A DNA stretch of 64,000 bases from a virus. The DNA is taken from positions 1 through 64,000 of IMG/VR virus record IMGVR_UViG_3300005747_000263; one strand, written 5' to 3'. Positions 1,715 through 56,621 of the stretch are shown here, in pieces. How positions within the stretch are numbered: position 1 is the first letter of the stretch; every line of letters begins with the position of its first letter. The notes below the pieces were generated by a model, which made no database searches, was not told the DNA's origin, and saw only the letters and a program-made list of their open reading frames with translations. The position numbers were made by a program, and so were the translations under genes.

Positions 1715-2419
1715 TTAGAGTAGTGCTTCTAGTGAGTATTTATAGTGTGGTAATAGTAAATCCCTTGCCGCTTTAGCGTATAGTTGGATTTCGTATTGGG
1801 CACTACTTTCGTCTCTTAATTTGATGAAGTGTGCAATGCTTTGTAGGCTACCAGTCCAATACCATCTTACATACATTCCGTATGCAGGTAAGAATAATCT
1901 GGCTTGTTCCGGGGCAATACCTAAATTCATTGCTTCTTCGTAGAGTCTTTCTCCTTCTTTAATGTAGTGGAGTAGGTTTTCTGTCACCATTTTACCGGTG
2001 TATTCATCTAAGTTTTCTTCACCACTCCCTTGTTTACTATTTTCTGGGGCGGTACGCCAGTCTTTGAAGTCTGGTATATAAAACTTTGCTTCTTCAGTAA
2101 TATATCTTCGACTGGATTCATTCCATGCAAATTGTTCTTCACTATGAGTGCTACTTACTAAGTGTTTGAACCATTGTCTTGCAATAAATAGTGGTGCGTA
2201 TACTTCGAATTGTGCTACGGCGTGTCTAAACGGCGAAGTGTGACCGTGTTCTGCTAAGAAGTTAATGAGTCCTTTATCTTTCTCTGATAATGATACACTT
2301 TGTTTATCGTATGAGACTCTTGCACTATTTGCTACGGTTAAGTCGGACCCCATTACGTCTACTAATCTAATATATCCCTTATCTAATAAAGGGATAGTAT
2401 TTTCTGGTAAATCAGTCAT
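1715..2419 (-). CDS. thyX: flavin-dependent thymidylate synthase ThyX
   Basis: ANSARVSY, GHTSPFRH, IARQWFKH, NESSRRY, PEQARLFLP and SAQYEI motifs; start moved to ATG 2419 (GAGGTG RBS, ATGA coupling to the upstream ORF). Confidence 0.95.
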   Translation of the reverse strand: MTDLPENTIPLLDKGYIRLVDVMGSDLTVANSARVSYDKQSVSLSEKDKGLINFLAEHGHTSPFRHAVAQFEVYAPLFIARQWFKHLVSSTHSEEQFAWNESSRRYITEEAKFYIPDFKDWRTAPENSKQGSGEENLDEYTGKMVTENLLHYIKEGERLYEEAMNLGIAPEQARLFLPAYGMYVRWYWTGSLQSIAHFIKLRDESSAQYEIQLYAKAARDLLLPHYKYSLEALL

Positions 2420-2580
2420 GCTTGCACCTCTGCCTTGGGGCATTTGCCGAGGGCTGGCGGCTCTGAATCAATGATGCGGGTGCGTTGCTCATTGCAAGCA
2501 CCGCAAGCCCAAATGTAGAGCGCCCCGGTGGGTAGGTCAAGGTCAACATTCTCCCCGATTTGCTCCCAGGTGTGGCTCAT
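2416..2580 (-). CDS. 54-aa putative zinc-binding protein (not in ORF track)
   Basis: MSHTWEQIGENVDLDLPTGALYIWACGACNEQRTRIIDSEPPALGKCPKAEVQA*; GGTG RBS; stop overlaps the thyX ATG. Confidence 0.65.
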   Translation of the reverse strand: MSHTWEQIGENVDLDLPTGALYIWACGACNEQRTRIIDSEPPALGKCPKAEVQA

Positions 2581-3465: not shown

Positions 3466-4653
3466 CTAGAATAATTGCCTCAACTCATTAGCAATTGCGT
3501 CTTCAGTTTCTTTCGAAACATCATCGGTTAAGTATTCCAGCAGCAACTGAGTTTCATCCATGAAGTGTATCATGAAATCGTCAAATTCACGGAAGTTAAT
3601 AAATCGTTCATCATCAAAGGATAGAACTTCATCGCCGTCCATGATTTGAGATACTTCTTCCCAGTTAGCACTCAGTGTTTCTAATTCTTTATGTGTAATA
3701 GCCTGGGTAGTTCCATTCGTTGGGGTATTCGTCCCAGTCGTCTTTATAGCCGCTGGCAACCCCATTGGTTTTTTCATATCACAACCCGGAGCAGTTTGTC
3801 CGCCAAACTGTTTCATGTACATCTGAGCAGTCGGGAAGTATTGTACTTTAATTTGATGCAGGATAGCGCCCGTATTGTTATCAAACACTGTCACGGCGTC
3901 GTCCCAATCGGCACTATAATCCGATTCAAATTCAACTTTAGTATTATAAGATGCCGCTTTACAAGTTGCATTTACACGTTCCAATTTCAAGCCGTTCTTT
4001 TCAATACTCTTGATTACATCATTATGTTTGTATTCAACAATATCAGAACTGAATAACGAGTGAATGTCGTCGTTCGTATTCAAAATTGCAATACTATCGT
4101 TAATTAAGTGATACGTCACTCGCTTATTAACATTGGCAACAATTGTAATGTCGCCGCGAGTCATAAACAATGCGCCGTTACCGTAATCAACTACACTTTC
4201 AAGTAATTGTTTAATATTACCCGCCAATACCTCATGGTCTTCGGAGTAAAATTCATCGCTGAAAATTAACTTGAATAAACTTAATGAATCGTTATCGCAA
4301 GACATGAACTCGTCGGCCATACCTACAGTACCATTCATACTACAAGTAAAGCCTCGATAGTCCCACCCGTGAATATATTCCGGTGCAGTTTTACCCACAC
4401 TAGTTAATCTGGCATGACCATGTACTACGCCGGTATAATGGTCTACATTGTAATCAATGAAATTCATTACATCTTTGTATTCCATTGTACGAAGCGTGTC
4501 GCTTTTACCAGTAGGCTTAGTATAGTTAAATACATAACCATCGTCGTTATTTTTCATGTCAGAGTTCTTCATGTATCGAAGCATGATTCGACGCATTAAG
4601 TCTCTTGTTTCAGGAGAATTGTTTAAATTCAATCCAATAAATCCTCTACACAT
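3466..4653 (-). CDS. class II (Ntn) glutamine amidotransferase-like protein
   Basis: N-terminal Met-Cys (MCRG), DGY, HARLTS, (M)NGTV and DNDS motifs of GAT-II. Confidence 0.85.
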   Translation of the reverse strand: MCRGFIGLNLNNSPETRDLMRRIMLRYMKNSDMKNNDDGYVFNYTKPTGKSDTLRTMEYKDVMNFIDYNVDHYTGVVHGHARLTSVGKTAPEYIHGWDYRGFTCSMNGTVGMADEFMSCDNDSLSLFKLIFSDEFYSEDHEVLAGNIKQLLESVVDYGNGALFMTRGDITIVANVNKRVTYHLINDSIAILNTNDDIHSLFSSDIVEYKHNDVIKSIEKNGLKLERVNATCKAASYNTKVEFESDYSADWDDAVTVFDNNTGAILHQIKVQYFPTAQMYMKQFGGQTAPGCDMKKPMGLPAAIKTTGTNTPTNGTTQAITHKELETLSANWEEVSQIMDGDEVLSFDDERFINFREFDDFMIHFMDETQLLLEYLTDDVSKETEDAIANELRQLF

Positions 4654-4671
4654 TGTTTCATCCTTTATGTT

Positions 4672-5595
4672 TTAATAATTTTGTAAAAAGAATCCATTAT
4701 CAAGTCTACTGTATGTATAAATGAATGCGGTTCTAACTGTTCCTCGTTCGACTAACTTACCGTTAGCATTAAACTTATATTCTTTTGATACGTCACAATC
4801 TAATCCGAGAGTTGCATTGGGAATAAATCTGGGTACAACATTTTCCGCTGCATTACCCATTGTTTGTATAAAAGCGCCGGGGTTGCCGGTGATTTGACTC
4901 GTAGTAATTTTTGGGTCAAGTACGGAGTCGTCAGTAGTAAGTGACTTACAAACTGAAGTCTTACATGATACACCGTCTTTTTCAAGATTTGAAATATACT
5001 TATTGATAAATGCAATACTTCCATACACATAATCTTTCATTACGGAGCATTCCTTTGCGGGGAATAGTCTTAATTCAAAAGTTTTCTTCCCTTGGTATGC
5101 ACCAGTAAAGTTAATCATGTAGTACTTATTTTGTCTACCGGAATCTGGATGGCTATGTTTAAAGTAATGGTCTGGATATTCAGTCTTATAGAAATCAGTT
5201 TCGTATTCAGGACTGCGCCATGACATTCGTTCTCGGAAATATTCATCCATGTAGTTATCAGTCACGAACTTGTAGAAAGCGGTTGCAAATTCCTTATTGA
5301 ACAGAGCGCTGTAATATTTACTATTATGGAATGAGAAATGAATATGCAAGCCCATACCTTGACTGTAATAGTCTTCGTAATAGATTTGTTTGAGTTCATC
5401 GAAGAAACCATTGATTCGCTTCTTATTACTCAACGGAATGCTTACTGCTTCTCGTTGATAATAATCTCCTTCAGGATATCTCTGGGGCCATAAGTATTCC
5501 TCAACTAAACCGCTGATATGAGGATAAGGAGTATCATTGTAAGTGCTAAAAAGACCTTCAACTTCAATACCTATCGCAGCAATTTTTCCTAGCAT
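4672..5595 (-). CDS. putative amidoligase (glutamine-synthetase/GCS-like COOH-NH2 ligase, Amidoligase_2 type)
   Basis: IGIEVEG, REAVS.PL, GMGLHIHFS, KYYMIN, TFELRLF. Confidence 0.85.
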   Translation of the reverse strand: MLGKIAAIGIEVEGLFSTYNDTPYPHISGLVEEYLWPQRYPEGDYYQREAVSIPLSNKKRINGFFDELKQIYYEDYYSQGMGLHIHFSFHNSKYYSALFNKEFATAFYKFVTDNYMDEYFRERMSWRSPEYETDFYKTEYPDHYFKHSHPDSGRQNKYYMINFTGAYQGKKTFELRLFPAKECSVMKDYVYGSIAFINKYISNLEKDGVSCKTSVCKSLTTDDSVLDPKITTSQITGNPGAFIQTMGNAAENVVPRFIPNATLGLDCDVSKEYKFNANGKLVERGTVRTAFIYTYSRLDNGFFLQNY

Positions 5596-5599
5596 GATA

Positions 5600-6085
5600 C
5601 TATCCTACAATAACTGTTCCAGTTACGGTTGTAATTTTACCGTAACTAATATATAACGTCTGAATGAATCGATTAAAAGTAGTGCAATAATCTTCCAATT
5701 GTTGGTTATTATATAGACCCTGTAAACTAATCGCAATTCCATTATCTGCACCGTCAATTAATGCGAAAACTACATTGTGTCCGAAATCATAGTTGAGTTC
5801 GGGAGTGTTATACACTCCGGCACCATTTGGCATTCTAAGTTTACGAGTGTTAATTTGCTTACAAATGAACATTTTCCCGTCAGCATCGGTTAAAGTGTTT
5901 ACATTTTTAGTAGTAATTTCGTTCATAATCGCCGACATTACTGGATGCAATTTAATGCTCATTAAGAATTTTCCGTTATCTTGCAGTTCAAGTTTGATAT
6001 TGGAAAGTTCTTCGCCATTTTTGGCCGAAGGTGTTTTACTTAGATGCTCCACTAATGGAGCAAATTCACTAATCATTTCTGTCAT
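5600..6085 (-). CDS. hypothetical protein in the amidoligase operon
   Basis: 161 aa; start overlaps the ATP-grasp stop. Confidence 0.6.
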   Translation of the reverse strand: MTEMISEFAPLVEHLSKTPSAKNGEELSNIKLELQDNGKFLMSIKLHPVMSAIMNEITTKNVNTLTDADGKMFICKQINTRKLRMPNGAGVYNTPELNYDFGHNVVFALIDGADNGIAISLQGLYNNQQLEDYCTTFNRFIQTLYISYGKITTVTGTVIVG

Positions 6086-6885
6086 TATAGTTCTCCATTA
6101 AAATACTTTACGAATGCAGTAGTGTATGAATCAAGAGTAGTTCCTTCTAACGCTGGACTACTATTCAATTCAAGTACAACTGGCATTGAATTATGTTTAT
6201 CAATGCAAATGTCTACTGCCGCAAAATCTAGTCCGAGTAATCGGACTGAATTAATTGCAGCAATAAGTACTTGTTGTGGCACTTCTACATTTTCTCTCGC
6301 AAAAATCCATCCATTATCGTAACTACGAATGTCTGGATTCCACGAATCTAATTCTCGGGCACCATTTCTTGCTTTCTTTTCCGAGTAATCAATTACTTCA
6401 CCATTCAATACGTGAATGCGAAACTCTCGCTCTTTAGCAATACCCTTAACGTATAATGGTGCATCAATTACTTCATCGCTACTGCGAGCAACAATGATAC
6501 CCTCTCCGCTGTGACCGTTTAATTTGGTACGAATGAATACTCGTTTACAGATATCATTATCTAACCAATACTTTGCAATATTAATATCGGTAGTATAGTC
6601 GGGGATATTAGTAAAATCTTCATTGTTCAAGTGTTCGAACGTTCGTAGTTTATCAGTACTAATATCCACGCCATTCTTGTTGAGAATAGTTGGAGAGTGT
6701 CCTGGTGTAATATTGATTCTTGGGGCGCTGTTGCCCCAGTTAATAATTACGTCGCCGGTTCGGGCACGGAATTTACTTTCTTCGGTGCGGACCCTGAGAA
6801 TGTTAAGTTGTCGAGCCAAGTTGCGACCCGATTCACTTGCCATTTTATACGGTAATAGTCTGATTCGTCGTCTTTGATTTCTCAT
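6085..6885 (-). CDS. ATP-grasp ligase (phage RimK/YheCD-like)
   Basis: INWG, DKLRTF, GHSGEGI, EFRIHV, LGLDFAAVD, VLELNSSPAL; start set to ATG 6885 by the GGTGGAG RBS. Confidence 0.9.
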   Translation of the reverse strand: MRNQRRRIRLLPYKMASESGRNLARQLNILRVRTEESKFRARTGDVIINWGNSAPRINITPGHSPTILNKNGVDISTDKLRTFEHLNNEDFTNIPDYTTDINIAKYWLDNDICKRVFIRTKLNGHSGEGIIVARSSDEVIDAPLYVKGIAKEREFRIHVLNGEVIDYSEKKARNGARELDSWNPDIRSYDNGWIFARENVEVPQQVLIAAINSVRLLGLDFAAVDICIDKHNSMPVVLELNSSPALEGTTLDSYTTAFVKYFNGEL

Positions 6886-7519
6886 AATCTCCACCAATGT
6901 AATACCTAACATAATCGATGAATCCCATATTGTACCTACTATTAATAATAAGTTCTGGATGCTCATCTAACATGTGTAGATTTTGCCGAATATTTCTGCT
7001 TTGATAATAATCGCCCGGCGAGTATGAATTACTACTTATGTTGTTAAATAGCGTCTGGAAAGTAATTTCTTCTGGTAAATGTTTTTGCCATCCCCACCTA
7101 AGCGCATTGACAAAAAATGACGCAGGGATTTCGCGCCACTCGTAATCACGCGGCACAGTAATAAATACTTTAGTCGTATAACGTCCCACGGTAAATACAT
7201 TGAATGTTGGCATTCCGGGGATATTCTCCATCCATTCCAGAACCCTAACTAAGTTATGGAAGTCTCTCTTGCCATCTGCTTTCATTGCAAAGATTAACGT
7301 AGAATTGTCTCGCACGCGATATGTTGCAAATTCTTTACAATAAGCGTGGTCGCCGCTCCAGCCAAAAACATACGGTAAACCTCCATATCCATTATCTCTT
7401 GGTTTAATTGCATTGACTAACGAATATTTACGATTAGTAATTCTACTTAAGCGCAATAATTCAGGAACACTATCTACATTAAATTCTTTTAGATTGGGTT
7501 TATGACTCACATTTACCAT
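6845..7519 (-). CDS. hypothetical protein in the amidoligase operon
   Basis: 224 aa; shares CKEFA and NALRWG motifs with 8439-9284. Confidence 0.6.
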   Translation of the reverse strand: MVNVSHKPNLKEFNVDSVPELLRLSRITNRKYSLVNAIKPRDNGYGGLPYVFGWSGDHAYCKEFATYRVRDNSTLIFAMKADGKRDFHNLVRVLEWMENIPGMPTFNVFTVGRYTTKVFITVPRDYEWREIPASFFVNALRWGWQKHLPEEITFQTLFNNISSNSYSPGDYYQSRNIRQNLHMLDEHPELIINSRYNMGFIDYVRYYIGGDYEKSKTTNQTITV

Positions 7520-8422
7520 TTAAATCTTCCAGTTTTCAAATACATTAGTACCAAGTTTCTTGTCGGTACTAAACATTTCTGCCGAATCAAGAATAGTAGC
7601 ATATTCAGGGTAGTATTCCAGAATATCTACTACAAGATTATTGCAGTACACTTCATTGTTAGCATTGAGGGAATGTTCCAATGCGTTCCAGTCGGTCTTA
7701 TATTCTTGCTCCATTGCCATTTTCTTAACAATTTCTACGGAGTCAAACATGTATTCAACTAACTTGGGGTGTTTGTACCAGTAATTACTTTGGCTTCGAC
7801 ACTCGATGCCGTATGGTTTTAACCTGTGGGCACCGGCTTTGCCGTATAGATTCTTACGAAGCGCCGCTTCAGGAGTTTTATCTAGGAAGCCAACTGCACT
7901 TGCACCAATTAGTAATTCAAAGTGTTTACCGACACTTTGTACACCTTCGAAGGTATCGAAGAAGTTTGATTCTTTAGAACCACTTGGACTAATATGAACA
8001 TGGCCTCCGCAAGTACGGAAAGGACTTTCGGCCGCCCCTTCTGGAATTACGTTGCGAGAATTATTAAAGATATTAAAATCTGGTTCACAACCGAATACCT
8101 TACAAATGGGGTGGTCCAATTGTTCCTTACTGTATTCGAGCGCCGGAATAGTATGAATACTCATTCCTTCCTCGGCATCACTAAGCATATTCTTAGTAAT
8201 TTTAAACAAGTTAGTAGTAATATCAATTACTTCTTGTTTGGTACTGCCTGGGTTAATACTCATTTCGAGGTTAGCATTGTCTGGGAATACTAATCCGTAG
8301 CGAGTCTTAATCTTAGGTAGGCGAACTTTTTCCAATTTAGGAATAAGTTGCATGGCTTTAGGGGCGCTAATTACTTCGCCAGTTGGTCTTTTAATTACAA
8401 ATTCTGGGTCGCTTCCAAACAT
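7520..8422 (-). CDS. phiEco32-type COOH-NH2 ligase (type 2)
   Basis: FGSDPEF, DNANLE, FGCEPDFN, RTCGGHVH, R..LYGKAG.HR.KPYGIECRS.SNYW. Confidence 0.92.
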   Translation of the reverse strand: MFGSDPEFVIKRPTGEVISAPKAMQLIPKLEKVRLPKIKTRYGLVFPDNANLEMSINPGSTKQEVIDITTNLFKITKNMLSDAEEGMSIHTIPALEYSKEQLDHPICKVFGCEPDFNIFNNSRNVIPEGAAESPFRTCGGHVHISPSGSKESNFFDTFEGVQSVGKHFELLIGASAVGFLDKTPEAALRKNLYGKAGAHRLKPYGIECRSQSNYWYKHPKLVEYMFDSVEIVKKMAMEQEYKTDWNALEHSLNANNEVYCNNLVVDILEYYPEYATILDSAEMFSTDKKLGTNVFENWKI

Positions 8423-8438
8423 AATATACCTATACTAT

Positions 8439-9284
8439 TTAACAATCTCCGCAATCACAGTAATCATCATCATGACAACTTGAACAATCGCTATCACAGT
8501 CGTAAAAATCATTATATACAACCGCATCGCGCAGGTCAAAGTATGAATCGTTTGCACATTCGGTGCAAATATGCACCGAGGAAAACCTCTCTAAATGTTT
8601 TTCAATACCTACGCCTTTAATGGTATCAAATGTGCTACACTCTCCGTCTTGCAAGTAAACTTCCGCAGTATACTTGGCGTAGTTGTTATAACTTTTACTG
8701 AATGACTCGTTAAAGCCATTTACGTTTACGATTTCGCCGTCGCGCAATTCCTTATAATATTGACTCAAGTCTTTACCCCGATACTCGGGGAAGTAATAAC
8801 TTCCAAATCGAAGAATCAATGTGAGTAAATAAGTGTTAGGAACGCTTGCGATAAATAATGGATTGAATACTACAATACATAAGTCGTCACTTTCAATTCC
8901 AACATTACTGGCTTTAATGAATAATTCATCTTCGGGGAAGTTGAACCATTCCTTCATTACTTCACAGTAAGCGTTAATGTTATCTGCTAGGATTGCACCA
9001 TTCTTTGATTCGGCGCTCCTTGCTCCCATAAAGAAGTAATTACGAGTCCCATTGCGATAATGGTCGGATAAATAACCCGCCGCATAATCTCGACACTCCG
9101 ACGCGTGGTAATACTTATAAGTTTTAATGTAATGCGCAATATAAGTAGAACTGCTCGACTCGTCACTTTGAACTAATTTTAATTCTGCATCGGTCAATCC
9201 AATGACCGCATCGCGAATGTCAGGACTTAACTTACTTACAAGGTCTTCAGTAGTAATTGATTGCTTCAATAGTGTTTCTGTCAT
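8439..9284 (-). CDS. hypothetical protein with a Cys/Asp-rich C-terminal tail
   Basis: Start set to ATG 9284 (GGTGA RBS); CRDYA and LILRFG motifs; tail DCDSDCSSCHDDDYCDCGDC. Confidence 0.6.
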   Translation of the reverse strand: MTETLLKQSITTEDLVSKLSPDIRDAVIGLTDAELKLVQSDESSSSTYIAHYIKTYKYYHASECRDYAAGYLSDHYRNGTRNYFFMGARSAESKNGAILADNINAYCEVMKEWFNFPEDELFIKASNVGIESDDLCIVVFNPLFIASVPNTYLLTLILRFGSYYFPEYRGKDLSQYYKELRDGEIVNVNGFNESFSKSYNNYAKYTAEVYLQDGECSTFDTIKGVGIEKHLERFSSVHICTECANDSYFDLRDAVVYNDFYDCDSDCSSCHDDDYCDCGDC

Positions 9285-9645
9285 TCCAGTCACCAGATTC
9301 AATTAAATTATCTTCACTAACTCCGCCAAGATACAAGTAAATGTATGCAGGGCCAAGTTCGGTATCAATACTGATACGGTCATAGAAAGAGTTGTTATTA
9401 CTCCCCGGCGTATAACCTTCCAGTCCATTGATACTGCTTAATTCTTCATCATTAACCCAGTAAAGTTCCGCAACAATAGTATCACTATCTGATGCGCGCT
9501 TAATACCAGGGAAACTGAATAAAGAATACATTTTAAATCCAGGTACTTCAATAGTACTAACTGGGTCTTTACGCAAAAAGTAATTATGATTACCATTGCC
9601 TTGCCTCAATGTGCCATATACGGCAATAAGTGTTTCATTAGTCAT
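9247..9645 (-). CDS. gamma-glutamylcyclotransferase (AIG2/GGCT-like)
   Basis: VYGTLRQG.GNH, FPGI, LEGY...YDR, AYIY, IESGDW. Confidence 0.92.
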   Translation of the reverse strand: MTNETLIAVYGTLRQGNGNHNYFLRKDPVSTIEVPGFKMYSLFSFPGIKRASDSDTIVAELYWVNDEELSSINGLEGYTPGSNNNSFYDRISIDTELGPAYIYLYLGGVSEDNLIESGDWNDRNTIEAINYY

Positions 9646-9826
9646 TAACTTTTACTCCATGTACAACTTCAATGTTGATTTCTGTATTAGGGATAAGGAG
9701 AGTATTGTATAGTAAATTACGAGCAGTTTCTTCGTTAATTGATTTAACATATCCATTCTGCAATTGGTTATTAGAATCTTCGTATTCAAAGTAGAATAAC
9801 TTAAGTTTAGAATTCATCTTCATCAT
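9638..9826 (-). CDS. hypothetical protein
   Basis: Small coupled ORF. Confidence 0.5.
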   Translation of the reverse strand: MMKMNSKLKLFYFEYEDSNNQLQNGYVKSINEETARNLLYNTLLIPNTEINIEVVHGVKVND

Positions 9827-10019
9827 CTACCGTAATGGACATATTTAGTGTGATATCAAATCGGTTATGAGTAATTGCTTCATTCAAGTGGTCCTTAATT
9901 GCTTCTTTCATATCTTCGATTTTATCTCCATAATGAGTTATGGGACAATCGCTCGTTTTAGAACCAAGGCACTTGGCTTCATAATACCAATAATCAATTC
10001 CGACTGTATGTTGAACCAT
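9807..10019 (-). CDS. hypothetical protein
   Basis: Small ORF, AGGT RBS. Confidence 0.5.
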   Translation of the reverse strand: MVQHTVGIDYWYYEAKCLGSKTSDCPITHYGDKIEDMKEAIKDHLNEAITHNRFDITLNMSITVDDEDEF

Positions 10020-10027
10020 ATAATTAC

Positions 10028-10411
10028 CTATACATTTGTTTTCTTAAGAGTTTTATTATTGAATGGAATAGTGTGAACGTCGCCATCTCCCCAAGAAATC
10101 ATTACTGGTATAATTTCATTGGTCACTTGTTGTTGATACGGTACAACGGGGCCGTAAACATACCTATTATATTTCACGTTGCCGCCCATTAGTGAAATAC
10201 TTTGAATCCAACCGATGCTTTCGCCATACTTAACTTCGCCCAGTTTATTATGAGTGAATGCTTCAGTATTAAAGTGTAATGGTACATTACTGGAGATATT
10301 CTTTAATAGATTGACTTTATCGTCTTTATGGTATTCGTGTAAATCGGCGAAGTATGTTTCTTCTTGAATGCGATTACTAATCAGGCGTGTTAATTCACTT
10401 TTTGTATACAA
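10028..10411 (-). CDS. hypothetical protein
   Basis: 127 aa; GGAGG RBS before a TTG start. Confidence 0.55.
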   Translation of the reverse strand: MYTKSELTRLISNRIQEETYFADLHEYHKDDKVNLLKNISSNVPLHFNTEAFTHNKLGEVKYGESIGWIQSISLMGGNVKYNRYVYGPVVPYQQQVTNEIIPVMISWGDGDVHTIPFNNKTLKKTNV

Positions 10412-10436
10412 ATTATTTATCCTCCAACGTATTAAA

Positions 10437-10510
10437 CGGGCATACTGCGATTTGAACGCAGGTGAATCGCTTAGAAGGCGATACGGATATCCGAACTACC
10501 TCATATGCCC
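10437..10510 (-). tRNA. tRNA-Arg(UCU)
   Basis: Acceptor GGGCATA/TATGCCC; anticodon stem ATCGC/GCGAT with loop CT-TCT-AA; T-arm CTGCG-TTCAAAT-CGCAG; G18G19A20; no encoded CCA. Confidence 0.88.
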
Positions 10511-10536
10511 AAAAAGAGAGAAAAAGGTAGTATTGA

Positions 10537-17214: not shown

Positions 17215-18160
17215 CATATGAGTAATTACTCCTGGTATATACTAATATAATACTATACACATACAGTATACACTAACATAATTACTCCCGTGTCCGTATA
17301 CTAATCAATATAATACTATACAATAAGTAATTATACATAATCAAAGTATACCTGTAATATATATAATTATACATAAGAAATAATTAACTTTGATTGGGGT
17401 AATTATACGCGAATCGACAGGTATAATTGACTTTTGAGGTAAATTTAGCACCACAAAGACATACTTATGTCCACCCCCCAAGACAATTACTCCTTACCCC
17501 CCAAGGTAATTTCTCCTTATCTGTCCCTCCAATCCAAGATAATTTATTCTTACTCGGAGTAAAGTTTAAAAAACTTTACGACTCGCAAAGATTTTTAATC
17601 TTTGCTCGATACGAGTTAGGAGTAATTACCTTTGCTCGGCGACTCTATTGTATTAATAATAAATTTTGGGGCAAGAGTAATTACCTTTGCTCGGCAGGGT
17701 GTATTTAAGATAAATAAGCGCTACTCGGCAGGAGGGTATTTAATTTAAATAATGAATCCCCAAGCAAAAGTAATTACCTTACCCCCCTAAGGGGGCAGGA
17801 AGTTTTATGATTAAATGACCGAATTGGTCGGTCAGGAGGAATTACCTTTGGTTCAGACGGTCAGAATCGCCGTCTAAGCCACTTCGAGCCTTCAACCCTC
17901 CACGGGATAGCCACCGTGCCGTCGAAGGCCACACGAGGCGCTTTAGGGCCTTTACGTTGTACTCGCCCCGCAAGAGTTAATCGAAATACTCTCTACTCGC
18001 CGGGGATAAGGTATTTATAATATATCGGGCGGATTTTTTAAAAAAAATAAATTTAAAATTTATTATAAAAAAAATAAATTTTCACATCGTAAGTAAAATA
18101 AATAAATCCTGATACCAAAAAAATTTAACCAATAAAATTTATTGGTTAAGAATAATAGAT
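17215..18160. other. AT-rich repeat-laden control region (candidate replication origin or terminus)
   Basis: Multiple GAGTAATTAC motifs, CTTTGCTCG x3, AATATAATACTATACAC x2, very AT-rich 18030-18150 with palindrome TTAACCAATAA-AAT-TTATTGGTTAA. Confidence 0.5.
17861..17955. repeat. dispersed ~100-bp element, copy 2
   Basis: CAGAATCGCCGTCTAAG, with GGGCCTTTAC starting 78 nt after the CGC. Confidence 0.55.
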
Positions 18161-19330: not shown

Positions 19331-19420
19331 GAACCCGTCACTCTGAATCGCCGGACCCGGCGCCGCCGTGGTAAGGTCCATATGCGCCGTCGGGAAAATT
19401 GGAATTTTTTTAGAATCAAA

Positions 19421-19553
19421 TAATTACTCCTGTATCTAAAGATAGAGATAATTACCCCTGTGTCCAGGGACTAAGATAATTACTCCTGTGTCTAAAGACT
19501 AAGTTAATTACCCCTATGTCCTAGGACGAAGTTAATTACTTCTGTGTCCAGTG
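19421..19553. repeat. 28-bp tandem repeat (4 full copies plus 1 partial)
   Basis: Consensus TAATTACYCCTRTRTCYNNRGAYNRAGW; no unique spacers. Confidence 0.9.
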
Positions 19554-27861: not shown

Positions 27862-28062
27862 ATGGCGTTAATCACTAATTTAACGTGGAAGAAATTAATT
27901 TTCGTTGTTCTATTAGTGTGTCCCATGATTTTTGCTTTAATTGCGTATCCATTCTTTTACGTCGAAGCATTGCAACCTGCTATTAGTATTCTTAGTGGAT
28001 TGTTAGGCTTTACTATGCGGGAGTTGTTCGAGACGGCTAAAGACGGCAAGGGGGAGCTTTAG
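27862..28062 (+). CDS. two-TM membrane protein (holin-like)
   Basis: 66 aa; two hydrophobic helices and a charged C-terminus. Confidence 0.5.
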   Translation: MALITNLTWKKLIFVVLLVCPMIFALIAYPFFYVEALQPAISILSGLLGFTMRELFETAKDGKGEL

Positions 28063-29853
28063 ATGGGTGTTGACCACTTTGAGACTAATGAAGTCCATGT
28101 TTTAGATACTACTTCTACGAGGGTTAATCCTGCCACGGAGGAGACTCTTCAGGCGGTAGTGGATGCTGTTGATGGTTTAGAACTTAGTGCTGACACCATT
28201 AATATCAACTTAGAGGACCTTGAGACTCTAGTCGCCGCCACAAATGCCGCCATAGCCTCCCTGGAGGCCGCTAACGACCTTTCTGGCGACGATGTGGTGT
28301 CTGCTATCCAAACGGCACAAAGTGCCTTAGAAGCCGCCCTAGGGGCCCTACAAGCCAGTAACGAGACACATTCCGACGAGGAGCAAGCGGCTATTGCTTC
28401 TTTGGAAGCCGCAGTGGCCGCGTTCCACACTGCCTTCGATGTGCGGGACCTCGCCACGGAGACTACCCTCGCCGACCTCCTCGCATCCACGGGTGATGAA
28501 ACCGATGCCGAAGCAACGGCTGACGGTTCAGTCATCGCTATCCTGAAGCGCATTCGAACGCGCCTCGACCAATCCATCACGGACTTCAACGCGGAAGACT
28601 TCGCGTCGGAGACCACTCTCGGCGCATTCAAAGCTGCAAACAATGCAGACATTCAGGCCCTCATTGCGGCCAACGACATTTCAGGTGACGATATCGTCAC
28701 TGCCATCCAAGCCCTCGAAGCGGCCAGCGATGCCTCGGGCGATGACATTGTCACGGCAATCAATGACTGTTGTGTCACCATCGAAGCAAGCCTCACTGCA
28801 ATCGAGGCAAGCGTTGACGCATTCAAGGCCGCCTTTGATGCCCGTGACTTGGCAACTGAAACAACGTTGGCGGATGCACGTGATAACATTGAGGACATTC
28901 GTGCCCGGTGGGTGGGTGGCTACAGCACTTCGGTTGGTGATGGTCACAGTGGAGGCGGCGCTCTTCGAACTGAGGGGCACAACTACGGCTACAACGGCGC
29001 CGACTGGGACCGTTTGCGCTCAAGCATTGCGAACGGCCTTGAAGTGGATGCCACCATTCTTCGTAGCGCCCCAACGATTGAGAGTGGGTTGAGTGATGTC
29101 GAAACCTCTGTCGATGAACTCAAGGCCCAGAATCTCACCAAGCACGACTCCATCATCTCGGAGTTGCAGGACGTTGAAGCCGACATTGAGGCATTCAAGG
29201 CGGAGGCTCACGCCGATTCGCTTGACACGCAAGCCGCAGTGGACGAACTTAAGGCAGTCAACCAAGCCGAATTCGACGCAACACAAACCCTGCTCCAGAC
29301 GGAGTTCGATGAGACTCAAGCTGCAATTGTAGCAGCCTCTGCTCAGAACGGTTTGGACCTCCAAGATGTGGAGGATGCCGTTGATGAATTGAAGGCTGTG
29401 AATCAGGCAGAGTTTGATGCAACCCAGGCTCTACTGCAAGCAGAGTTCGATGCCACTCAAACCCTTCTACAAACTGAGTTTGACGAAACCCAGACTGCCA
29501 TCTCTAACGCTTCCGCTCAAAACAGCGCCGACCTCCAATCCATCGAGGACAATCAGACGGATGGCTCGCAAATAACTCAAGTCATCCTCCCTACACTTGA
29601 AGAAGCAATGAAGGTCAAGTTGGACTTGACGTACAAGTGGAAGAGTGCCAAGACTATTGTTGGTACAACTAAGACAACTTACACGGCTTCCGCGCCGGTT
29701 GGGACCGCAACGAGTGCCGCGTTGTGGGTAGTGGTTCGTATCATTGAAGACCTCGCCACAGGTGACTCCCAGATTGAAGGTCGCGCTAACATTGCTTATG
29801 ATAATCGCGCCGACCCCACGATTGACGGTGAAGCGGCATGGGAGGCATTGTAG
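28063..29853 (+). CDS. acidic coiled-coil repeat virion protein (fibre/whisker-like)
   Basis: Internal repeats ANDxSGDDIVxAI, RDLATETTLAD, AVDELKAVNQAEFDATQ. Confidence 0.65.
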   Translation: MGVDHFETNEVHVLDTTSTRVNPATEETLQAVVDAVDGLELSADTININLEDLETLVAATNAAIASLEAANDLSGDDVVSAIQTAQSALEAALGALQASNETHSDEEQAAIASLEAAVAAFHTAFDVRDLATETTLADLLASTGDETDAEATADGSVIAILKRIRTRLDQSITDFNAEDFASETTLGAFKAANNADIQALIAANDISGDDIVTAIQALEAASDASGDDIVTAINDCCVTIEASLTAIEASVDAFKAAFDARDLATETTLADARDNIEDIRARWVGGYSTSVGDGHSGGGALRTEGHNYGYNGADWDRLRSSIANGLEVDATILRSAPTIESGLSDVETSVDELKAQNLTKHDSIISELQDVEADIEAFKAEAHADSLDTQAAVDELKAVNQAEFDATQTLLQTEFDETQAAIVAASAQNGLDLQDVEDAVDELKAVNQAEFDATQALLQAEFDATQTLLQTEFDETQTAISNASAQNSADLQSIEDNQTDGSQITQVILPTLEEAMKVKLDLTYKWKSAKTIVGTTKTTYTASAPVGTATSAALWVVVRIIEDLATGDSQIEGRANIAYDNRADPTIDGEAAWEAL

Positions 29854-30008
29854 TGCCGCTCAAACTCGCCGCAGTCTGCGTGAATTGCTCCGATGGCGCA
29901 AGCCCACCCATGGCTTTCTCTAGCAATTTGGATGCAACCCAACACCTCACGGATAACCCATACCACATCATTGTCAGTCGCGCACTTATTCATGAGGAGG
30001 AAGAATAG
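29853..30008 (+). CDS. 51-aa C2H2-like zinc-finger protein (not in ORF track)
   Basis: GTG start after GGAGG; MPLKLAAVCVNCSDGASPPMAFSSNLDATQHLTDNPYHII...; fills the gap exactly. Confidence 0.6.
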   Translation: MPLKLAAVCVNCSDGASPPMAFSSNLDATQHLTDNPYHIIVSRALIHEEEE

Positions 30009-33000
30009 ATGGCGAACTACAAGGGTGAAGCCTACTGCACTTCCACAAACCTGACAGGAGCGGTTCACTTCAAACTCACCACGGACTCGGGTGGCACTTT
30101 CAGCGGTACTCGTGCCGACCGAAGCACTTGGGAACTGAACGCAGGGGCATCCGTCACGCTCTACTTCTACCGTGGAACCACGGGGACTCTCCCTCCCGCT
30201 CTACCGGATGGTGACGGCGGGGACTTGGTGAGACTCCGAGTCTATCATGAAACGGGCACGGGCACGCTCGTCCGTGAATTATTCACGGGGACTTCACCAC
30301 CAGCGAACGGTACGTCATACACATTCTATGCAACCAGCAATGGTCTTATAGGTGGCTCCCCTCGAGCCGGTACCCTTCGGCTACGCATTGAAGCCATCCA
30401 ATCCGGTGAATTGCTGGACAACTACAACATCGACAGTGACACGCAAGACCAAGGTGTCCTTCGATGCAATCAAGTCACTCCAGACACCAAACTCGTCCAC
30501 GACGGCTACCCCAGCGGTTCCACTTACGCCATCGGTCCAGCCAGCACTGAGAGCGTCGGCATCACATTCACCCACGACCCACCCTTCGGCACTGGCGCGC
30601 ATCAAGACATGCGCATTGATGTCCTTGATGCGGGGGCGGTTCAATTCGCGGGAACCCAACAAGACTTGGTGGGTACATCATCCACGCTGTCTGTCCCCGT
30701 GAACACCGCGAACTTCGACGACACCAGTAAAGCATACGGCCTCCGAGTCACGCCCATTGGTGCGGCGCTACTGCAACCAACCAGTGAAGGCTCCATGCTG
30801 TGGTGTCGCTTCGGGTCAGGCACGGGTACGACGCAGAACGGCAACTCCGTTGAACGCGCAAGTGGTGTATTCAACGTTGACCCCCGCGTCACCGTCCCGT
30901 CCCCGACCCTGTCTAAGTCCCTCCACAACCGAGGCGACAGCACGACAATTGATTACAACGTCAGGAACGCTCGGAATGAAAACCTCACTCGCTCCCTGAA
31001 CTACGTCCTCAAGGACAGCGGTGGAACTACACGCAAGAGTGGCTCCGACAGCGGCGCGAACTACGACATTGACTACACCATTGGCTCCGCAGATGCGGCG
31101 GCCTTTGACTTTGTCGGCTCCCAATGGACGTTCGAGACGAGCAACTCTGAATTCACTACTGTCACCTCTAACGCCTACAGGGTCAGCCGCAAGGTGATGA
31201 TTGGTTCCGGTGTTGGCTCCAATAATCTTTCAATTAATACGAACTTCGAGGTATACAATCGCGGTGAGACCGTCACCTATGACTTCTACGTCAGCGCCGC
31301 CGATGGCACTGCCTACACGCGCACCGTTACCGCCGAAGTCCACAACACAGCACACGGCGTCGAGAACCAACGCAGTGAATCCAACGGCGACGGGCACTTC
31401 CAAGATTCCTATGTTGTTGCCAGCGGTGATACTGCGACGGGTGACCAAACGGGCTCATTAAAGCACATTGAGATTGACCCCAACGGCACGGGCGGTAACA
31501 GTGCCGACGCGTCTGCCGCAGAGTGGGGCGTAAGCACCCTTCGCGTCATTCACAGCACAGCAACACTTCCCAGTGGCAACCCCGCCAACGCAGACAACAC
31601 GGTGTCAATCGTTACCACGACGAGTGACGACGGTGGGGGTGGCGACCGTTCGCTACTGAATGTCCTTGAGACGGCACAGATTGACTACTACCTTTATGGG
31701 GTTCGAGGACAGGCGTGGCCCTTCAGTTTTAACAGTCGCATCATCGCAGCCGATGGCAGCACCGACTTTACGGATGTCCGCACTCCCAGTGGTGCTGGTC
31801 TCGTGTCCTACACGCGCACGATGGCGAACGGTGTTGAATCCGCATTCGACCTCGTTGGTGATGCCAAGCACATTCGCGCCGACAGCAGTGACTCTAACGA
31901 CACCGTGAACAGCGCCGATGCCGCCGCCGTATCAAGCAAGATTCTCATTGGCTCCGCCGCTGGCCTTGATGACGGGGACCTCGTCATTGAAGTCGGCTCC
32001 GTTGGCAGTGGCGACGATGCAACAATGAGTGGCGTCTACCCCACCGCCATCTTCAACCGTGACAGTGGCGAAGCAGACGTTGCCATCAGCACCTACCTAT
32101 CCTACGCCCGTCTCACCAAGTATGCCAATCAAACAGTGAGCAGTGCAGTCCACTCCGATGTTCACGGTGTGGAAGATTCGCAGACACCCACGACGGATGC
32201 CAACGGTCTGCTTGCTTACACTTACACCATTGCCAACACCGACAAGGCCACCGCGCACGTTGAGAAATCCACGGGTGGCTACAGTACCCTGCCGACTGGC
32301 TCGCCCAAACACCTCACCATCACGGACGGCGACAACACTACCATTGACAGCGACGAAGCGTGGGGTGTCACGAAGCACCTATGGGTGGATGTTCACGACG
32401 AGCGTGAGGAACCTCTCAATAGGGACACATGGAACCCCGCTGACCCCAGTGATGGCTCCGAGAACGCAGAGGAAGAACCGTTCCAATACGTTATTCTTGG
32501 TGATACTCTCAAGGTATGGGCTCATGTCATGTCGGTTCGCCTCGACCGCGAAATCGAGACATGGGATGGGGACACAGGCTCCTATCCAGCGAATCGCGCA
32601 GTGCGTCTCCGCACAATCAAACCCAGTGGTTCCGTCAACGCCACCATGCTCACGGACACGGGCATTGATGGCTGGACGAGTGGCGTGGACGAAGCCGAGA
32701 CCGGTGAACTCAATGGCGCCACAGACCCAATGGTTGTTGAGGAAACCTACGAGACATTCTCTAGCGGTACCGACCAAATCACATTGACTGGCGTGGATGC
32801 CGTGAAGGGCAACCGCTACATCATCTTCTCCAGCAACGGCTCCGCACCCGTAGACATCACGGGCATCACTGGCATGGGATTCACTTGGGTCCAAGTCGAT
32901 GCCCAAGAATCTACTAATAACAGTGGTCGCTTGGAGGCTTGGATTTCCGAAGGCGCATTCACTGGTGCTGAGAACATCGTCATCGACTACAGTGGCGTGT

Positions 33001-33932
33001 TCCAAGACTGCGCCGTCACCCTCGTCCGTGTTAGTGGCGGTGACGTAAGTGAACCCGTCCTTGACTTCACGGGTGATTCACAGAACGGTAGCTCTTGGAG
33101 CCTCCCCACCTTGACTGGTGACACTGGCACGGGCATCGTCGTCGTGGGTGTGAACGGCAACGACAAAGATACCGTCACGATGTCCGCCCCACTCGCTAAG
33201 GAATCCGACAACCCCGGAGCAGGTAGTGAAACCGCTCTCGGTGTCGGCGCATTCACGGCGCAAGCTGACAACAGCACCAGTGGTTCATTCAGTGCACCCG
33301 GTAGCACTCGCTGGCAAGCTATCGCCGTCAGCCTACGAGCAGGAGACAGCGACGACCCCAACAGTGGTCTCAACTTCAACCGACCATGGAATCAGGAAAC
33401 GGGCAGCATGACTCCCGCTTCAAGCAACTGGCAGGTATGCGCCGAAGTGGATTTCGACGGCAACTCGGGTAGAGCGTGTGACCTCATCACGATTGCGTCT
33501 CCTCTCATCACCAGCAAGGCTCGCATCTTCGCACCGGCAACGGTGTCGCCAGCCGAGACATTCAAGGTCTACGTCGAAGTGCTGGACAAAGCCATCGCCA
33601 GCGGTGAGGTATTCGCCACATTCCAACCCGCCACCCCCGAGAAGCCCCCTGAACTTGGCGGTTTAGTGGTCGAGGAAGACAGTCCAGACTACGTCGATGA
33701 CAGTGTTATTGCTCGTGAGGTGGACAAGAACGGAGAATCCATGAAGAACGTAATCGACGACACAGCCACAGTGAATGGCTCCCTCTACTACCTCGAAGTG
33801 ACGGCTCCCGCGATTCCGGGAACTGTCATTAACTGGTTCGCCGTCGTAGCCCTTGGTGGCGACGCTTTCACGAATGGACAAACCCGCGTGACTGCACCAG
33901 AGTTCAACCCACTAGGAGAGATTTTCGCATGA
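30009..33932 (+). CDS. giant beta-rich multidomain (Ig-like) virion protein / adhesin
   Basis: 1307 aa, Ser/Thr/Gly/Asp-rich; repeated modules (NRG.T....Y, HGVE, Y.I...D.A, KHI, EWGVS). Confidence 0.6.
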   Translation: MANYKGEAYCTSTNLTGAVHFKLTTDSGGTFSGTRADRSTWELNAGASVTLYFYRGTTGTLPPALPDGDGGDLVRLRVYHETGTGTLVRELFTGTSPPANGTSYTFYATSNGLIGGSPRAGTLRLRIEAIQSGELLDNYNIDSDTQDQGVLRCNQVTPDTKLVHDGYPSGSTYAIGPASTESVGITFTHDPPFGTGAHQDMRIDVLDAGAVQFAGTQQDLVGTSSTLSVPVNTANFDDTSKAYGLRVTPIGAALLQPTSEGSMLWCRFGSGTGTTQNGNSVERASGVFNVDPRVTVPSPTLSKSLHNRGDSTTIDYNVRNARNENLTRSLNYVLKDSGGTTRKSGSDSGANYDIDYTIGSADAAAFDFVGSQWTFETSNSEFTTVTSNAYRVSRKVMIGSGVGSNNLSINTNFEVYNRGETVTYDFYVSAADGTAYTRTVTAEVHNTAHGVENQRSESNGDGHFQDSYVVASGDTATGDQTGSLKHIEIDPNGTGGNSADASAAEWGVSTLRVIHSTATLPSGNPANADNTVSIVTTTSDDGGGGDRSLLNVLETAQIDYYLYGVRGQAWPFSFNSRIIAADGSTDFTDVRTPSGAGLVSYTRTMANGVESAFDLVGDAKHIRADSSDSNDTVNSADAAAVSSKILIGSAAGLDDGDLVIEVGSVGSGDDATMSGVYPTAIFNRDSGEADVAISTYLSYARLTKYANQTVSSAVHSDVHGVEDSQTPTTDANGLLAYTYTIANTDKATAHVEKSTGGYSTLPTGSPKHLTITDGDNTTIDSDEAWGVTKHLWVDVHDEREEPLNRDTWNPADPSDGSENAEEEPFQYVILGDTLKVWAHVMSVRLDREIETWDGDTGSYPANRAVRLRTIKPSGSVNATMLTDTGIDGWTSGVDEAETGELNGATDPMVVEETYETFSSGTDQITLTGVDAVKGNRYIIFSSNGSAPVDITGITGMGFTWVQVDAQESTNNSGRLEAWISEGAFTGAENIVIDYSGVFQDCAVTLVRVSGGDVSEPVLDFTGDSQNGSSWSLPTLTGDTGTGIVVVGVNGNDKDTVTMSAPLAKESDNPGAGSETALGVGAFTAQADNSTSGSFSAPGSTRWQAIAVSLRAGDSDDPNSGLNFNRPWNQETGSMTPASSNWQVCAEVDFDGNSGRACDLITIASPLITSKARIFAPATVSPAETFKVYVEVLDKAIASGEVFATFQPATPEKPPELGGLVVEEDSPDYVDDSVIAREVDKNGESMKNVIDDTATVNGSLYYLEVTAPAIPGTVINWFAVVALGGDAFTNGQTRVTAPEFNPLGEIFA

Positions 33933-34465
33933 TTAGTAACGATGAATACCCATTCTGGGCACGATGGTACGTCAATCGCACACTAGAGTCGGATATCACC
34001 GATGTTGACTACGTTATCCAAGAGTACGACCCCGATACAGATGCATTCGTTACTGTTGATTCCGGTAATATCGCTACACGCGATGCGCGTGGACGATGGA
34101 TTGCTCCATTTACATTCCCTACAGATACAGTTAATATCGTATACTACGCAGAGTACACGCCGAACGGTGGGGACCATCCCGTTTTAAGTGAAGAAGTTAC
34201 GACAGACGATGGTGTAGTATTTGCAACACAAGGTGGCGCGGGTACGGAAGAATATTCTGGATGCGTTAAAGATAAATCCGGAGCACCCATTGAGGGTGCA
34301 TTAGTTAAAGCTGTGTTTTACGGTACGGTTAATACTGCCGCGAGTGATTTAACAGATATTAATGGGGACTTTACTTTAACGGGTTTGTATGATGGTGTTG
34401 CGTACACTATTACTGCTAACGCGGATGGGTTTACCGGTAAGATTGCGGATAAGGTGGTTATTTAA
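33929..34465 (+). CDS. virion protein with a carboxypeptidase-regulatory-like (transthyretin-fold) domain
   Basis: SGCVKDKSGAPIEGALV...TDINGDFTLTGL..G..YTITANADGF. Confidence 0.7.
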   Translation: MISNDEYPFWARWYVNRTLESDITDVDYVIQEYDPDTDAFVTVDSGNIATRDARGRWIAPFTFPTDTVNIVYYAEYTPNGGDHPVLSEEVTTDDGVVFATQGGAGTEEYSGCVKDKSGAPIEGALVKAVFYGTVNTAASDLTDINGDFTLTGLYDGVAYTITANADGFTGKIADKVVI

Positions 34466-56178: not shown

Positions 56179-56612
56179 TGAACGCACCAATACCACACCC
56201 AATACCAGATAACGAATGGATAGAGCACTTAACTTCCCGTGGCAAGTCAAAAAACGTCATGGCATACACATGGGGCAATGATGATGGCTCCCCTAATGGG
56301 GAAGACCATATTGTTCTCAAGGAGTCTGATTTCAAAGCTGTTCTTGCGGGTAATCCATCAAGGGCCATTAAGCGACGAATCGTCCATGAATTGGGTCACA
56401 ACTTCGATAAGGACCGGAACAGCTTCGACCGTGTATACGACCATCCACATATTGATACGGAGGGATTGTGGGCTGCGATTAAGGACGCTGTATTAGTGAA
56501 GAAGTTTGGTACGATGTCCGCCATTGAGCAACTTCAATGGTTTGCTAAACCTAAGCACATTTGGGCTATATATGATGATGTTGTAACTGAATGGCGCAAT
56601 TACACTTATTAG
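56178..56612 (+). CDS. HExxH zinc metallopeptidase-like protein
   Basis: IVHELGHNF. Confidence 0.6.
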   Translation: MNAPIPHPIPDNEWIEHLTSRGKSKNVMAYTWGNDDGSPNGEDHIVLKESDFKAVLAGNPSRAIKRRIVHELGHNFDKDRNSFDRVYDHPHIDTEGLWAAIKDAVLVKKFGTMSAIEQLQWFAKPKHIWAIYDDVVTEWRNYTY

Positions 56613-56621
56613 GAGTTATTT

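Follow-up and report, generated by a model that had tools for sequence, protein, structure and literature searches.

A divergent, rearranged and partly hybrid relative of the phiEco32-type amidoligase cassette in an uncultivated tailed virus

Eight genes at positions 3466-9645 (minus strand) of the IMG/VR virus record IMGVR_UViG_3300005747_000263 form a compact operon that encodes five enzymes and three ORFans. With slightly better than even confidence, we assign this locus to the phiEco32-type amidoligase cassettes as a divergent member that has been rearranged and is in part a hybrid, and we propose that its enzymes together build an amide-linked product. The window analysed here is the first 64 kb of the 74,011-bp record, which has a 52-bp direct terminal repeat and represents an uncultivated, orphan tailed virus. 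The phiEco32-type cassette was reportedly predicted by Iyer, Abhiman, Burroughs and Aravind in 2009.

All eight open reading frames (ORFs) run in the same direction and are separated by 0-18 nt or overlap slightly; indeed, from 3466 to 10411 no gap between called ORFs exceeds 20 nt. In transcription order they encode a gamma-glutamyl(amine) cyclotransferase (GGCT), the ORFan u287, a COOH-NH2 ligase, the ORFan u224, an ATP-grasp ligase, the ORFan u161, an amidoligase and a class-II glutamine amidotransferase (GAT-II). A sequence-only reading had proposed this packing and order, with the five enzyme labels and three unknowns. The gene layout agreed with it, and every label was upheld by hidden Markov model (HMM), HH-suite and structure-based searches. 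Conserved or motif-level catalytic-type residues are kept in all five enzymes; these include the three ligases, whose catalytic residues that reading had presupposed. The genome is organized in two transcription arms: a structural arm on the plus strand (approximately 18 to 57 kb) and an early/replication arm on the minus strand that extends from approximately 17 kb through the ends of the record to 57.6 kb. The cassette lies inside the second arm, where it is probably co-transcribed.

The ATP-grasp ligase is RimK-like (ORF 6085-6966, minus strand), with matches to phrog_2599 (4.4e-77) and to Pfam RimK (26 bits, cut-off 21). In NCBIfam, the rimK_fam, MptN and RimK models each gave approximately 1e-5, and the 24-25 bits reached on the RimK and MptN models failed the equivalog cut-offs of 143-350 bits. 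By these scores, RimK, MptN and the RimK-family glutamate ligases are the nearest characterized families. The protein is 35-45% identical to the cassette ATP-grasps of five phages, with K106, R146, the SGEGI loop, E181, R183, D252, E266 and N268, which are Mg/ATP-binding residues, all invariant. Because the N-termini of the phage homologs align near residue 31, the true start is probably M28 at 6885, giving a protein of 266 aa (6085-6885). With this start the overlap with u224 shrinks from 122 to 41 nt and the distance to the COOH-NH2 ligase gene grows from 553 to approximately 634 nt. Of the 50,697 phage records searched, 312 (phages of Pseudomonas, Escherichia, Vibrio, Aeromonas and others) contain an ATP-grasp homolog, as do no fewer than 465 stretches of IMG/VR.

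The COOH-NH2 ligase type 2 (7520-8422, minus strand; 300 aa), a carboxylate-amine ligase resembling GCS2 and glutamine synthetase (GS), matched phrog_3815 at 1.3e-42 and a profile built from six phage homologs at 1.6e-45. Residues E7, E53, H141, H143, E207 and R209 are invariant across these six homologs. Identity to the phage-cassette homologs is 24-35%. A tblastn search retrieved 311 of the same 50,697 phage records, at approximately 29-34% identity among the matches listed, whereas the IMG/VR scan with this ligase alone as the query gave no match. Taken together, the phage homologs of the two ligases in these approximately 310 records span 30-43% identity. The two sets include Kuravirus and have the same partner enzymes alongside, so the resemblance to the phiEco32-type system that the sequence-only reading had seen is real. 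The GGCT (9247-9645, minus strand; 132 aa) is of the AIG2/GGACT-like type and matched Pfam PF06094 (GGACT) at 6.4e-17 and phrog_2520 at 3.8e-16. Its YGTLR motif (Y10, G11, L13, R14) and the L75-E76-G77-Y78 segment with the catalytic-type Glu are invariant when compared with the corresponding enzymes of phage NJ01 and Vibrio phage 275E43-1.

The last two enzymes belong to another lineage. The GS-fold, Amidoligase_2-related amidoligase (4672-5595, minus strand; 307 aa) consists of a catalytic domain (approximately aa 1-206) and a C-terminal extension of approximately 100 aa. Direct queries of Pfam, NCBIfam and the PDB sequences returned nothing for it, while an exhaustive HMMER search found 73 homologs. 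A PF12224 (Amidoligase_2) match is present in 41 of the 48 sequences of an alignment that includes the query itself, for which the match is not significant (E 0.21); membership of PF12224 would thus be transitive, through these relatives. We found G9, E11, E13, E49, H84, H86, T172, E174 and R176 to be invariant. The alignment matched the amidoligases of six reference phage cassettes by hhalign (92.9%, E 3.8e-7). The AlphaFold2 model (pLDDT 77) predicts a GS-like fold, and its top-ranked Foldseek matches are almost all glutamine synthetases, all with E >0.001.

The GAT-II (3466-4653, minus strand; 395 aa) is of the N-terminal nucleophile (Ntn) type and combines a domain at aa 1-200 with a 195-aa C-terminal region that has an acidic helical tail. 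It begins with MCRGF, placing a Cys at its N-terminus. Pfam, NCBIfam and PDB sequence searches were blank, the alignment found no match in the metagenome scan, and an AlphaFold2 model from a two-sequence alignment was unusable (pLDDT 35). In the ESM-Atlas, the protein reached a feature score of 0.93 to viral GATase_6/7/4 clusters, and residues 1-200 of the Atlas model superpose on class-II GATases of the GlmS/PurF type with TM scores of 0.75-0.80. The four members of the lineage all start with MCR and conserve the H-x-R, NG and NDS motifs; their alignment matched the phage-cassette GAT-II by hhalign (84.8%, E 6.6e-6).

This amidoligase/GAT-II lineage recurs as an adjacent pair on three further independent contigs. 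On two small metagenome contigs (L114, 776-2328, and L117, 156-1237) the genes overlap, in either order, with the GAT-II always starting MCR. The pair is apparently also present on a single 3259-bp Logan contig that bears the closest homologs (P0002, 38% identity; P0004, 42%). The pair forms a two-gene module of its own, distinct from the phiEco32-type cassette. Since the adjacency recurs on independent contigs, the two proteins look like a two-component glutamine-dependent amidotransferase, as far as sequence can tell.

The three ORFans gave no match in Pfam, PHROG or PDB searches and no similarity, by HMM or HH-suite, to the hypothetical proteins of six reference cassettes. The first, u287 (8439-9302, minus strand; 287 aa), is 281 aa long if it starts at the ATG at 9284, which is also the gene call of the protein collection in which no homolog was found among 5.8 billion proteins. 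It ends in an acidic, Asp/Cys-rich tail (...DCDSDCSSCHDDDYCDCGDC). The second, u224 (6845-7519, minus strand; 224 aa), occupies the slot of a 182-219-aa hypothetical protein of the canonical cassettes and had no tblastn match in the 50,697 phage records. It showed no similarity to that hypothetical protein (hhalign/hmmsearch E 0.15-0.7), although the canonical proteins are so divergent from one another that the signal may have been lost. Its Atlas model is poor (pLDDT 0.35) and the Atlas search was uninformative. The third, u161 (5600-6085, minus strand; 161 aa), likewise without tblastn matches in phages, has a start codon that overlaps the ATP-grasp stop (ATGA).

We compared this architecture with that of six reference phages: Kuravirus NJ01, Alcaligenes phage QDWS535, Vibrio phage 275E43-1, Citrobacter phage CVT22, Pseudoalteromonas phage Slicky01 and Pseudomonas phage PA11. 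The enzymes are clustered in each, usually in the order GAT-II, COOH-NH2 ligase, 182-219-aa hypothetical protein, amidoligase and ATP-grasp, with a GGCT nearby in the Kuravirus and Vibrio phage loci. Most of these cassettes sit among early/replication genes, upstream of primase/helicase and DNA polymerase. In Slicky01 (L112, 985-3266), a ribose-phosphate pyrophosphokinase and a nicotinate phosphoribosyltransferase (NAD-salvage type) are encoded a few kb upstream of the cassette. At the DNA level, a search of the cassette against phages gave no match.

In IMG/VR, we surveyed the neighborhoods of the 80 loci with the most similar ATP-grasp, the best 80 of at least 465. The canonical GAT-II was present in 60 of them, the canonical amidoligase in 52, the hypothetical protein in 37, the COOH-NH2 ligase in 35 and a GGCT in 12. 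By BLAST, none of the three ORFans and no member of the local amidoligase/GAT-II lineage was found in these 80 loci, the link of that lineage to the canonical enzymes being made by HH-suite only. Because the canonical amidoligase and GAT-II have no orthologs in the local pair, which recurs alone on other contigs, we regard the cassette as a hybrid; it is not a single inherited unit, in that orthology with the canonical cassette does not extend to all of its members. The full set of five activities has nevertheless been kept despite the non-orthologous pair, which argues that the activities work together.

The same retention bears on the proposal that these are loosely linked auxiliary metabolic genes that reroute host glutamine, glutamate or glutathione (nitrogen) without forming a single pathway. 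Several phage papers have read them in this way (for example PMC10580990 and PMC10945688), and both the GGCT and the GAT-II could use common metabolites. Loose linkage fits poorly with the tight clustering of the same ligase set across very different phages, and here despite a non-orthologous swap of two members. Moreover, catabolism would scarcely call for three different ATP-dependent ligases, and the proteins are remote from the housekeeping GS, GshA and RimK, all falling well under equivalog cut-offs. We therefore regard such an assortment as distinctly improbable.

Several points weigh against the reading of the locus as a joint amide-forming cassette. Our literature search found no biochemical or genetic study of any such cassette, and for this reason the chemistry proposed below is drawn from family analogies. 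No evidence at the locus points to an acceptor. The confirmation by curated HMMs that the sequence-only reading had called for was partial: the GGACT and RimK models were matched, the latter above its cut-off, while the COOH-NH2 ligase scored 23.1 bits on PF14395, just below the curated cut-off of 25 bits, the amidoligase had no significant direct match to PF12224, and the curated HMMs were silent on the GAT-II, which was identified through language-model and predicted-structure searches and a modest HH-suite match. In addition, the locus has no detectable counterpart of the conserved hypothetical protein found in canonical cassettes. Finally, a GGCT lies within 7 kb of the ATP-grasp in just 12 of the 80 IMG/VR loci, so this enzyme may be accessory rather than a step of the pathway.

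From the enzyme families we infer the following chemical steps, their order, the substrate and the purpose of the product. The three ATP-dependent ligases would each activate a carboxylate as an acyl-phosphate and then join it to an amine; acting together, they would assemble a short amide-linked chain, derived from Glu/Gln, on an acceptor that offers a carboxylate. The RimK-like ATP-grasp would extend a terminal carboxylate by an amino acid, which is most likely glutamate, and the GCS2-like COOH-NH2 ligase would form an amide of the gamma-glutamyl type. The GAT-II would hydrolyze glutamine and deliver the ammonia to the adjacent amidoligase, which would convert a free carboxylate to a carboxamide. 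The GGCT could release a gamma-glutamyl group as 5-oxoproline, either one that had served as a transient protecting group (as with BtrG) or in editing or recycling. These roles suit the enzyme equally well, and the reversible write/erase modification put forward from the sequence alone is not established. As acceptor, a peptide or protein carboxylate would be favored over a free small molecule; it might even be one of the operon's own ORFans, with the acidic Asp/Cys tail of u287 as a candidate. The caution in the sequence-only reading that the substrate cannot be read from the sequence was correct.

One possible acceptor is the cell envelope of a bacterial host. In this scenario the enzymes would alter the stem peptides of peptidoglycan or some other part of the envelope, for instance through amidation or extension of iso-glutamate, and would thereby block superinfection or tune lysis. 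Chemistry that adds Glu and amidates carboxylates fits stem peptides, with a logic like that of MurT/GatD, and relatives of the cassette are carried by phages that infect Gram-negative bacteria. The Pfam and PHROG scans revealed no component resembling a Mur ligase, and no membrane or export protein was recognized among the eight (no transmembrane prediction was made). Furthermore, the cassette lies in the early/replication arm and not in a lysis or structural module, and no endolysin was found. An envelope or peptidoglycan role for the phiEco32 genes is credited to Iyer et al. 2009 (as summarized in PMC10580990 and PMC11706807), and we found no experimental test of it in the literature. An envelope target of this kind appears rather improbable to us for the present locus.

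The position of the cassette also bears on a nucleic acid target, in which an amino-acid moiety would be appended to, or amidated on, a DNA base for evasion of restriction. Downstream of the cassette are a ThyX thymidylate synthase (1715-2443, minus strand; Pfam Thy1 5.1e-39, TIGR02170 1.3e-37), encoded in the same block, and an endonuclease; the same arm also holds a monomeric class-II ribonucleotide reductase (RNR; genome positions 69669-71675), a family-B DNA polymerase (PolB) and the primase. Nucleotide-metabolism and replication genes thus surround the cassette here, as they do in the reference phages. There is a precedent in viral contigs in which amidoligase and amidotransferase genes stand beside thymidine-hypermodification genes (Lee et al., PMC8989533). 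Against this, the ThyX of the virus is ordinary, and the Pfam and PHROG scans gave no 5-hmdU DNA kinase, aGPT-Pplase, dUMP hydroxymethylase or TET/JBP-type family, although no search was aimed at these. To our knowledge, modified DNA has not been reported for phiEco32-like or PA11-like phages. DNA hypermodification is accordingly, in our estimate, highly improbable.

The acceptor question depends in part on the host, which the sequence-only reading had taken to be apparently archaeal. This is an interpretation rather than an observation; the evidence is mixed, and we give an archaeal host somewhat less than an even chance. On the archaeal side, the AEP (PriS-like) primase has its best match, among 50,697 virus records, in Methanobacterium virus PhiF1 (3e-16), with Bacillus phages at 2e-7 or weaker, and one of only two TerL matches is to an Altiarchaeum virus. 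Neither the PolB nor the major capsid protein matched any phage record. The PolB clusters, at identities of 24-25%, with a clade whose members lie on contigs binned in a Woesearchaeota metagenome-assembled genome (MAG), an 'archaeon' MAG and one 'uncultured bacterium' MAG, as well as on IMG/VR fragments; these members (L008, L009, L043, L088-L094) are approximately 24-32% identical to one another. The IMG/VR fragments have an ATPase-PolB-primase-RNR module in common with the present virus. Some also carry Rep_fac_C (RFC-like), ERCC4, glycosyltransferase or reverse-transcriptase domains, and in one of them the primase is paired with ERCC4, as it is in PhiF1. Pfam scans that covered nearly every ORF of at least 60 aa across the 74 kb found no peptidoglycan hydrolase, holin, spanin or endolysin.

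On the bacterial side, the ThyX shares 64% identity with its counterpart in a Geobacillus phage and 57-61% with those of Streptomyces phages, and the RNR is 47% identical to those of actinophages; both are far nearer to bacteriophage genes than is any hallmark gene of the virus. The exonuclease shares 38-42% identity with proteobacterial phage genes, the genome encodes a DUF3310 phage protein, and the phage records with cassette homologs have bacterial hosts wherever one is named. In 401 genomes of the phylum of the Woesearchaeota MAG, the TerL gave generic weak matches only.

Other approaches did not discriminate between the two domains. A genome scan in which 79 of 80 PolB matches were archaeal was not used as strong evidence; its search pattern favored archaeal-type PolB, excluding Pol II of the E. 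coli type, and the result is thus uninformative on the host. Similarly, PF14395 was not found in five MAGs, nor in 14 control genomes, which makes its absence uninformative. Four partial viral relatives yielded neither the cassette nor TerL, and a PDB profile search with the 510-aa ATPase gave P-loop matches only. Sigma-70 promoters and intrinsic terminators were not enriched, which says nothing on the host, and the Shine-Dalgarno sequences in 43 of the 92 genes suit both domains.

Were the host an archaeon without peptidoglycan, the ligases could write, and the GGCT erase, a glutamate tag on an S-layer protein, a receptor or another host protein, for example in superinfection exclusion. The lack of lysis families, the primase and TerL matches and the PolB clade, with its distant relatives carrying Rep_fac_C and ERCC4, would all be in keeping with such tagging. 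The bacteriophage-like ThyX, RNR, exonuclease and DUF3310 protein, the bacterial hosts of the cassette phages, the PolB-clade contig binned as a bacterium and the generic TerL matches all speak the other way, and no sign of a surface target or of reversibility was seen in the sequence. We think this explanation unlikely. A more elaborate version, in which an archaeal virus with the full multi-ligase cassette has recruited the amidoligase/GAT-II pair and the ORFans, with u287 as the acceptor that is extended and amidated, as a tagging system on a host that lacks peptidoglycan, seems to us improbable.

The remaining features of the record are those of a tailed virus. The structural genes encode TerL, a portal, a major head protein of the HK97 type, a tape-measure protein of 1185 aa and tail proteins of very large size, while the replication and nucleotide genes comprise, in addition to the PolB, primase, RNR and ThyX mentioned above, a Cas4-like nuclease and a 3'-5' exonuclease. 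A tRNA-Arg(TCT) gene was located by ARAGORN at 10436-10511 (minus strand), just upstream of the cassette and in the same leftward block. Between the two transcription arms, at 19420-19500 of the window, are tandem 28-bp units that start ATAATTAC(T/C)CCTGT, with a further copy at 17278-17300; these may be iterons or operators. A block with a GC content of 54-57% at 28001-34000, compared with 36-50% elsewhere in the genome, coincides with two ORFs without a family match, of 596 aa and 1307 aa (30009-33932). The two genes that follow the tail module (56178-57323) encode a 144-aa protein, in which an HELGH motif resembles that of zinc peptidases, and a 233-aa protein that starts with a hydrophobic stretch in its N-terminal part and also has TSP3-like Asp repeats and a tail rich in Gly and Glu; judged by these motifs, both are candidate lysis or envelope-acting proteins.

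Cassettes of the phiEco32 type, which occur in over 300 sequenced phages and in several hundred IMG/VR contigs, are among the most widespread multi-enzyme clusters of tailed phages without an assigned function. Systems of this kind are widely annotated, and an amidoligase with a GATase in a putative archaeal virus, likened to phiEco32, has been published (PMC11706807). The novelty here lies in a hybrid variant that combines a non-orthologous amidoligase/GAT-II couple with three ORFans, in a PolB virus that is itself an orphan. That the five activities are kept despite the swap of the pair is comparative evidence for one pathway and for a functional couple of amidoligase and GAT-II. The locus also extends the cassette beyond the usual PolA-type proteobacterial phages, to a virus with PolB and AEP primase that is possibly archaeal. 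If the host is archaeal, this would be the first well-supported case of an archaeal virus that carries the complete multi-ligase cassette of the phiEco32 type. Peptidoglycan modification would then be unlikely for the whole family, and the search for the substrate would be narrowed.

Among characterized systems, the alpha-L-glutamate ligases RimK, MptN and CofF have their Mg/ATP-binding residues conserved in the local ATP-grasp, which is not their orthologue since its scores lie far under the cut-offs for these enzymes. In the pathway for the 4-amino-2-hydroxybutyrate (AHBA) side chain of butirosin, the ATP-grasp ligase BtrJ acts together with the gamma-glutamyl cyclotransferase BtrG, which removes a gamma-glutamyl protecting group. 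An ATP-grasp ligase and an enzyme of the AIG2/GGCT fold are thus common to both systems; the analogy is one of logic alone, as no homolog of the butirosin carrier protein, decarboxylase or acyltransferase (BtrI/K/H) was detected at the locus. Similarly, AsnB, MurT/GatD and proteins in which GAT-II is fused to synthetase domains place a class-II Ntn glutaminase beside an ATP-dependent enzyme that activates carboxylates. The partner at our locus is a GS-fold amidoligase rather than a PP-loop synthetase of the AsnB type or a Mur ligase, and its coupling to the glutaminase is presumed from the shared arrangement.

The published case closest in its claim is Vyasavirus brisbanense, a putative virus of Poseidoniales (Archaea) with an amidoligase and a GATase that were likened to phiEco32, with speculation on superinfection immunity (PMC11706807). 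This virus encodes holins and a muramoyl-alanine amidase, has no DNA polymerase and is unrelated to the present virus; the accessible portion of its description makes no mention of an ATP-grasp, a COOH-NH2 ligase or a GGCT. The auxiliary metabolic genes named for it (metallophosphoesterase (MPE), amidoligase, GATase and 2OG-Fe(II) oxygenase) are all among those reported for marine OM43 bacteriophages (PMC10580990). Given the holins, the muramoyl-alanine amidase and the auxiliary genes in common with OM43 phages, the archaeal assignment of Vyasavirus looks doubtful.

The phiEco32-type cassettes of Kuravirus, of the Zobellviridae PA11, CVT22 and 275E43-1 and of IMG/VR contigs have the same enzyme repertoire as our locus, including an AIG2-like GGCT in some, and tight clustering and placement among early/replication genes are common to both. 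The order differs, being GGCT, ORFan, COOH-NH2 ligase, ORFan, ATP-grasp, ORFan, amidoligase and GAT-II here, as opposed to GAT-II, COOH-NH2 ligase, hypothetical protein, amidoligase and ATP-grasp. The local amidoligase and GAT-II come from a different, rare lineage and are not orthologues of the canonical enzymes, and three interleaved ORFans take the place of a detectable conserved hypothetical protein. Finally, the usual carriers of the cassette encode PolA and a DnaB-type primase-helicase, whereas the present carrier encodes a PolB and an AEP primase.

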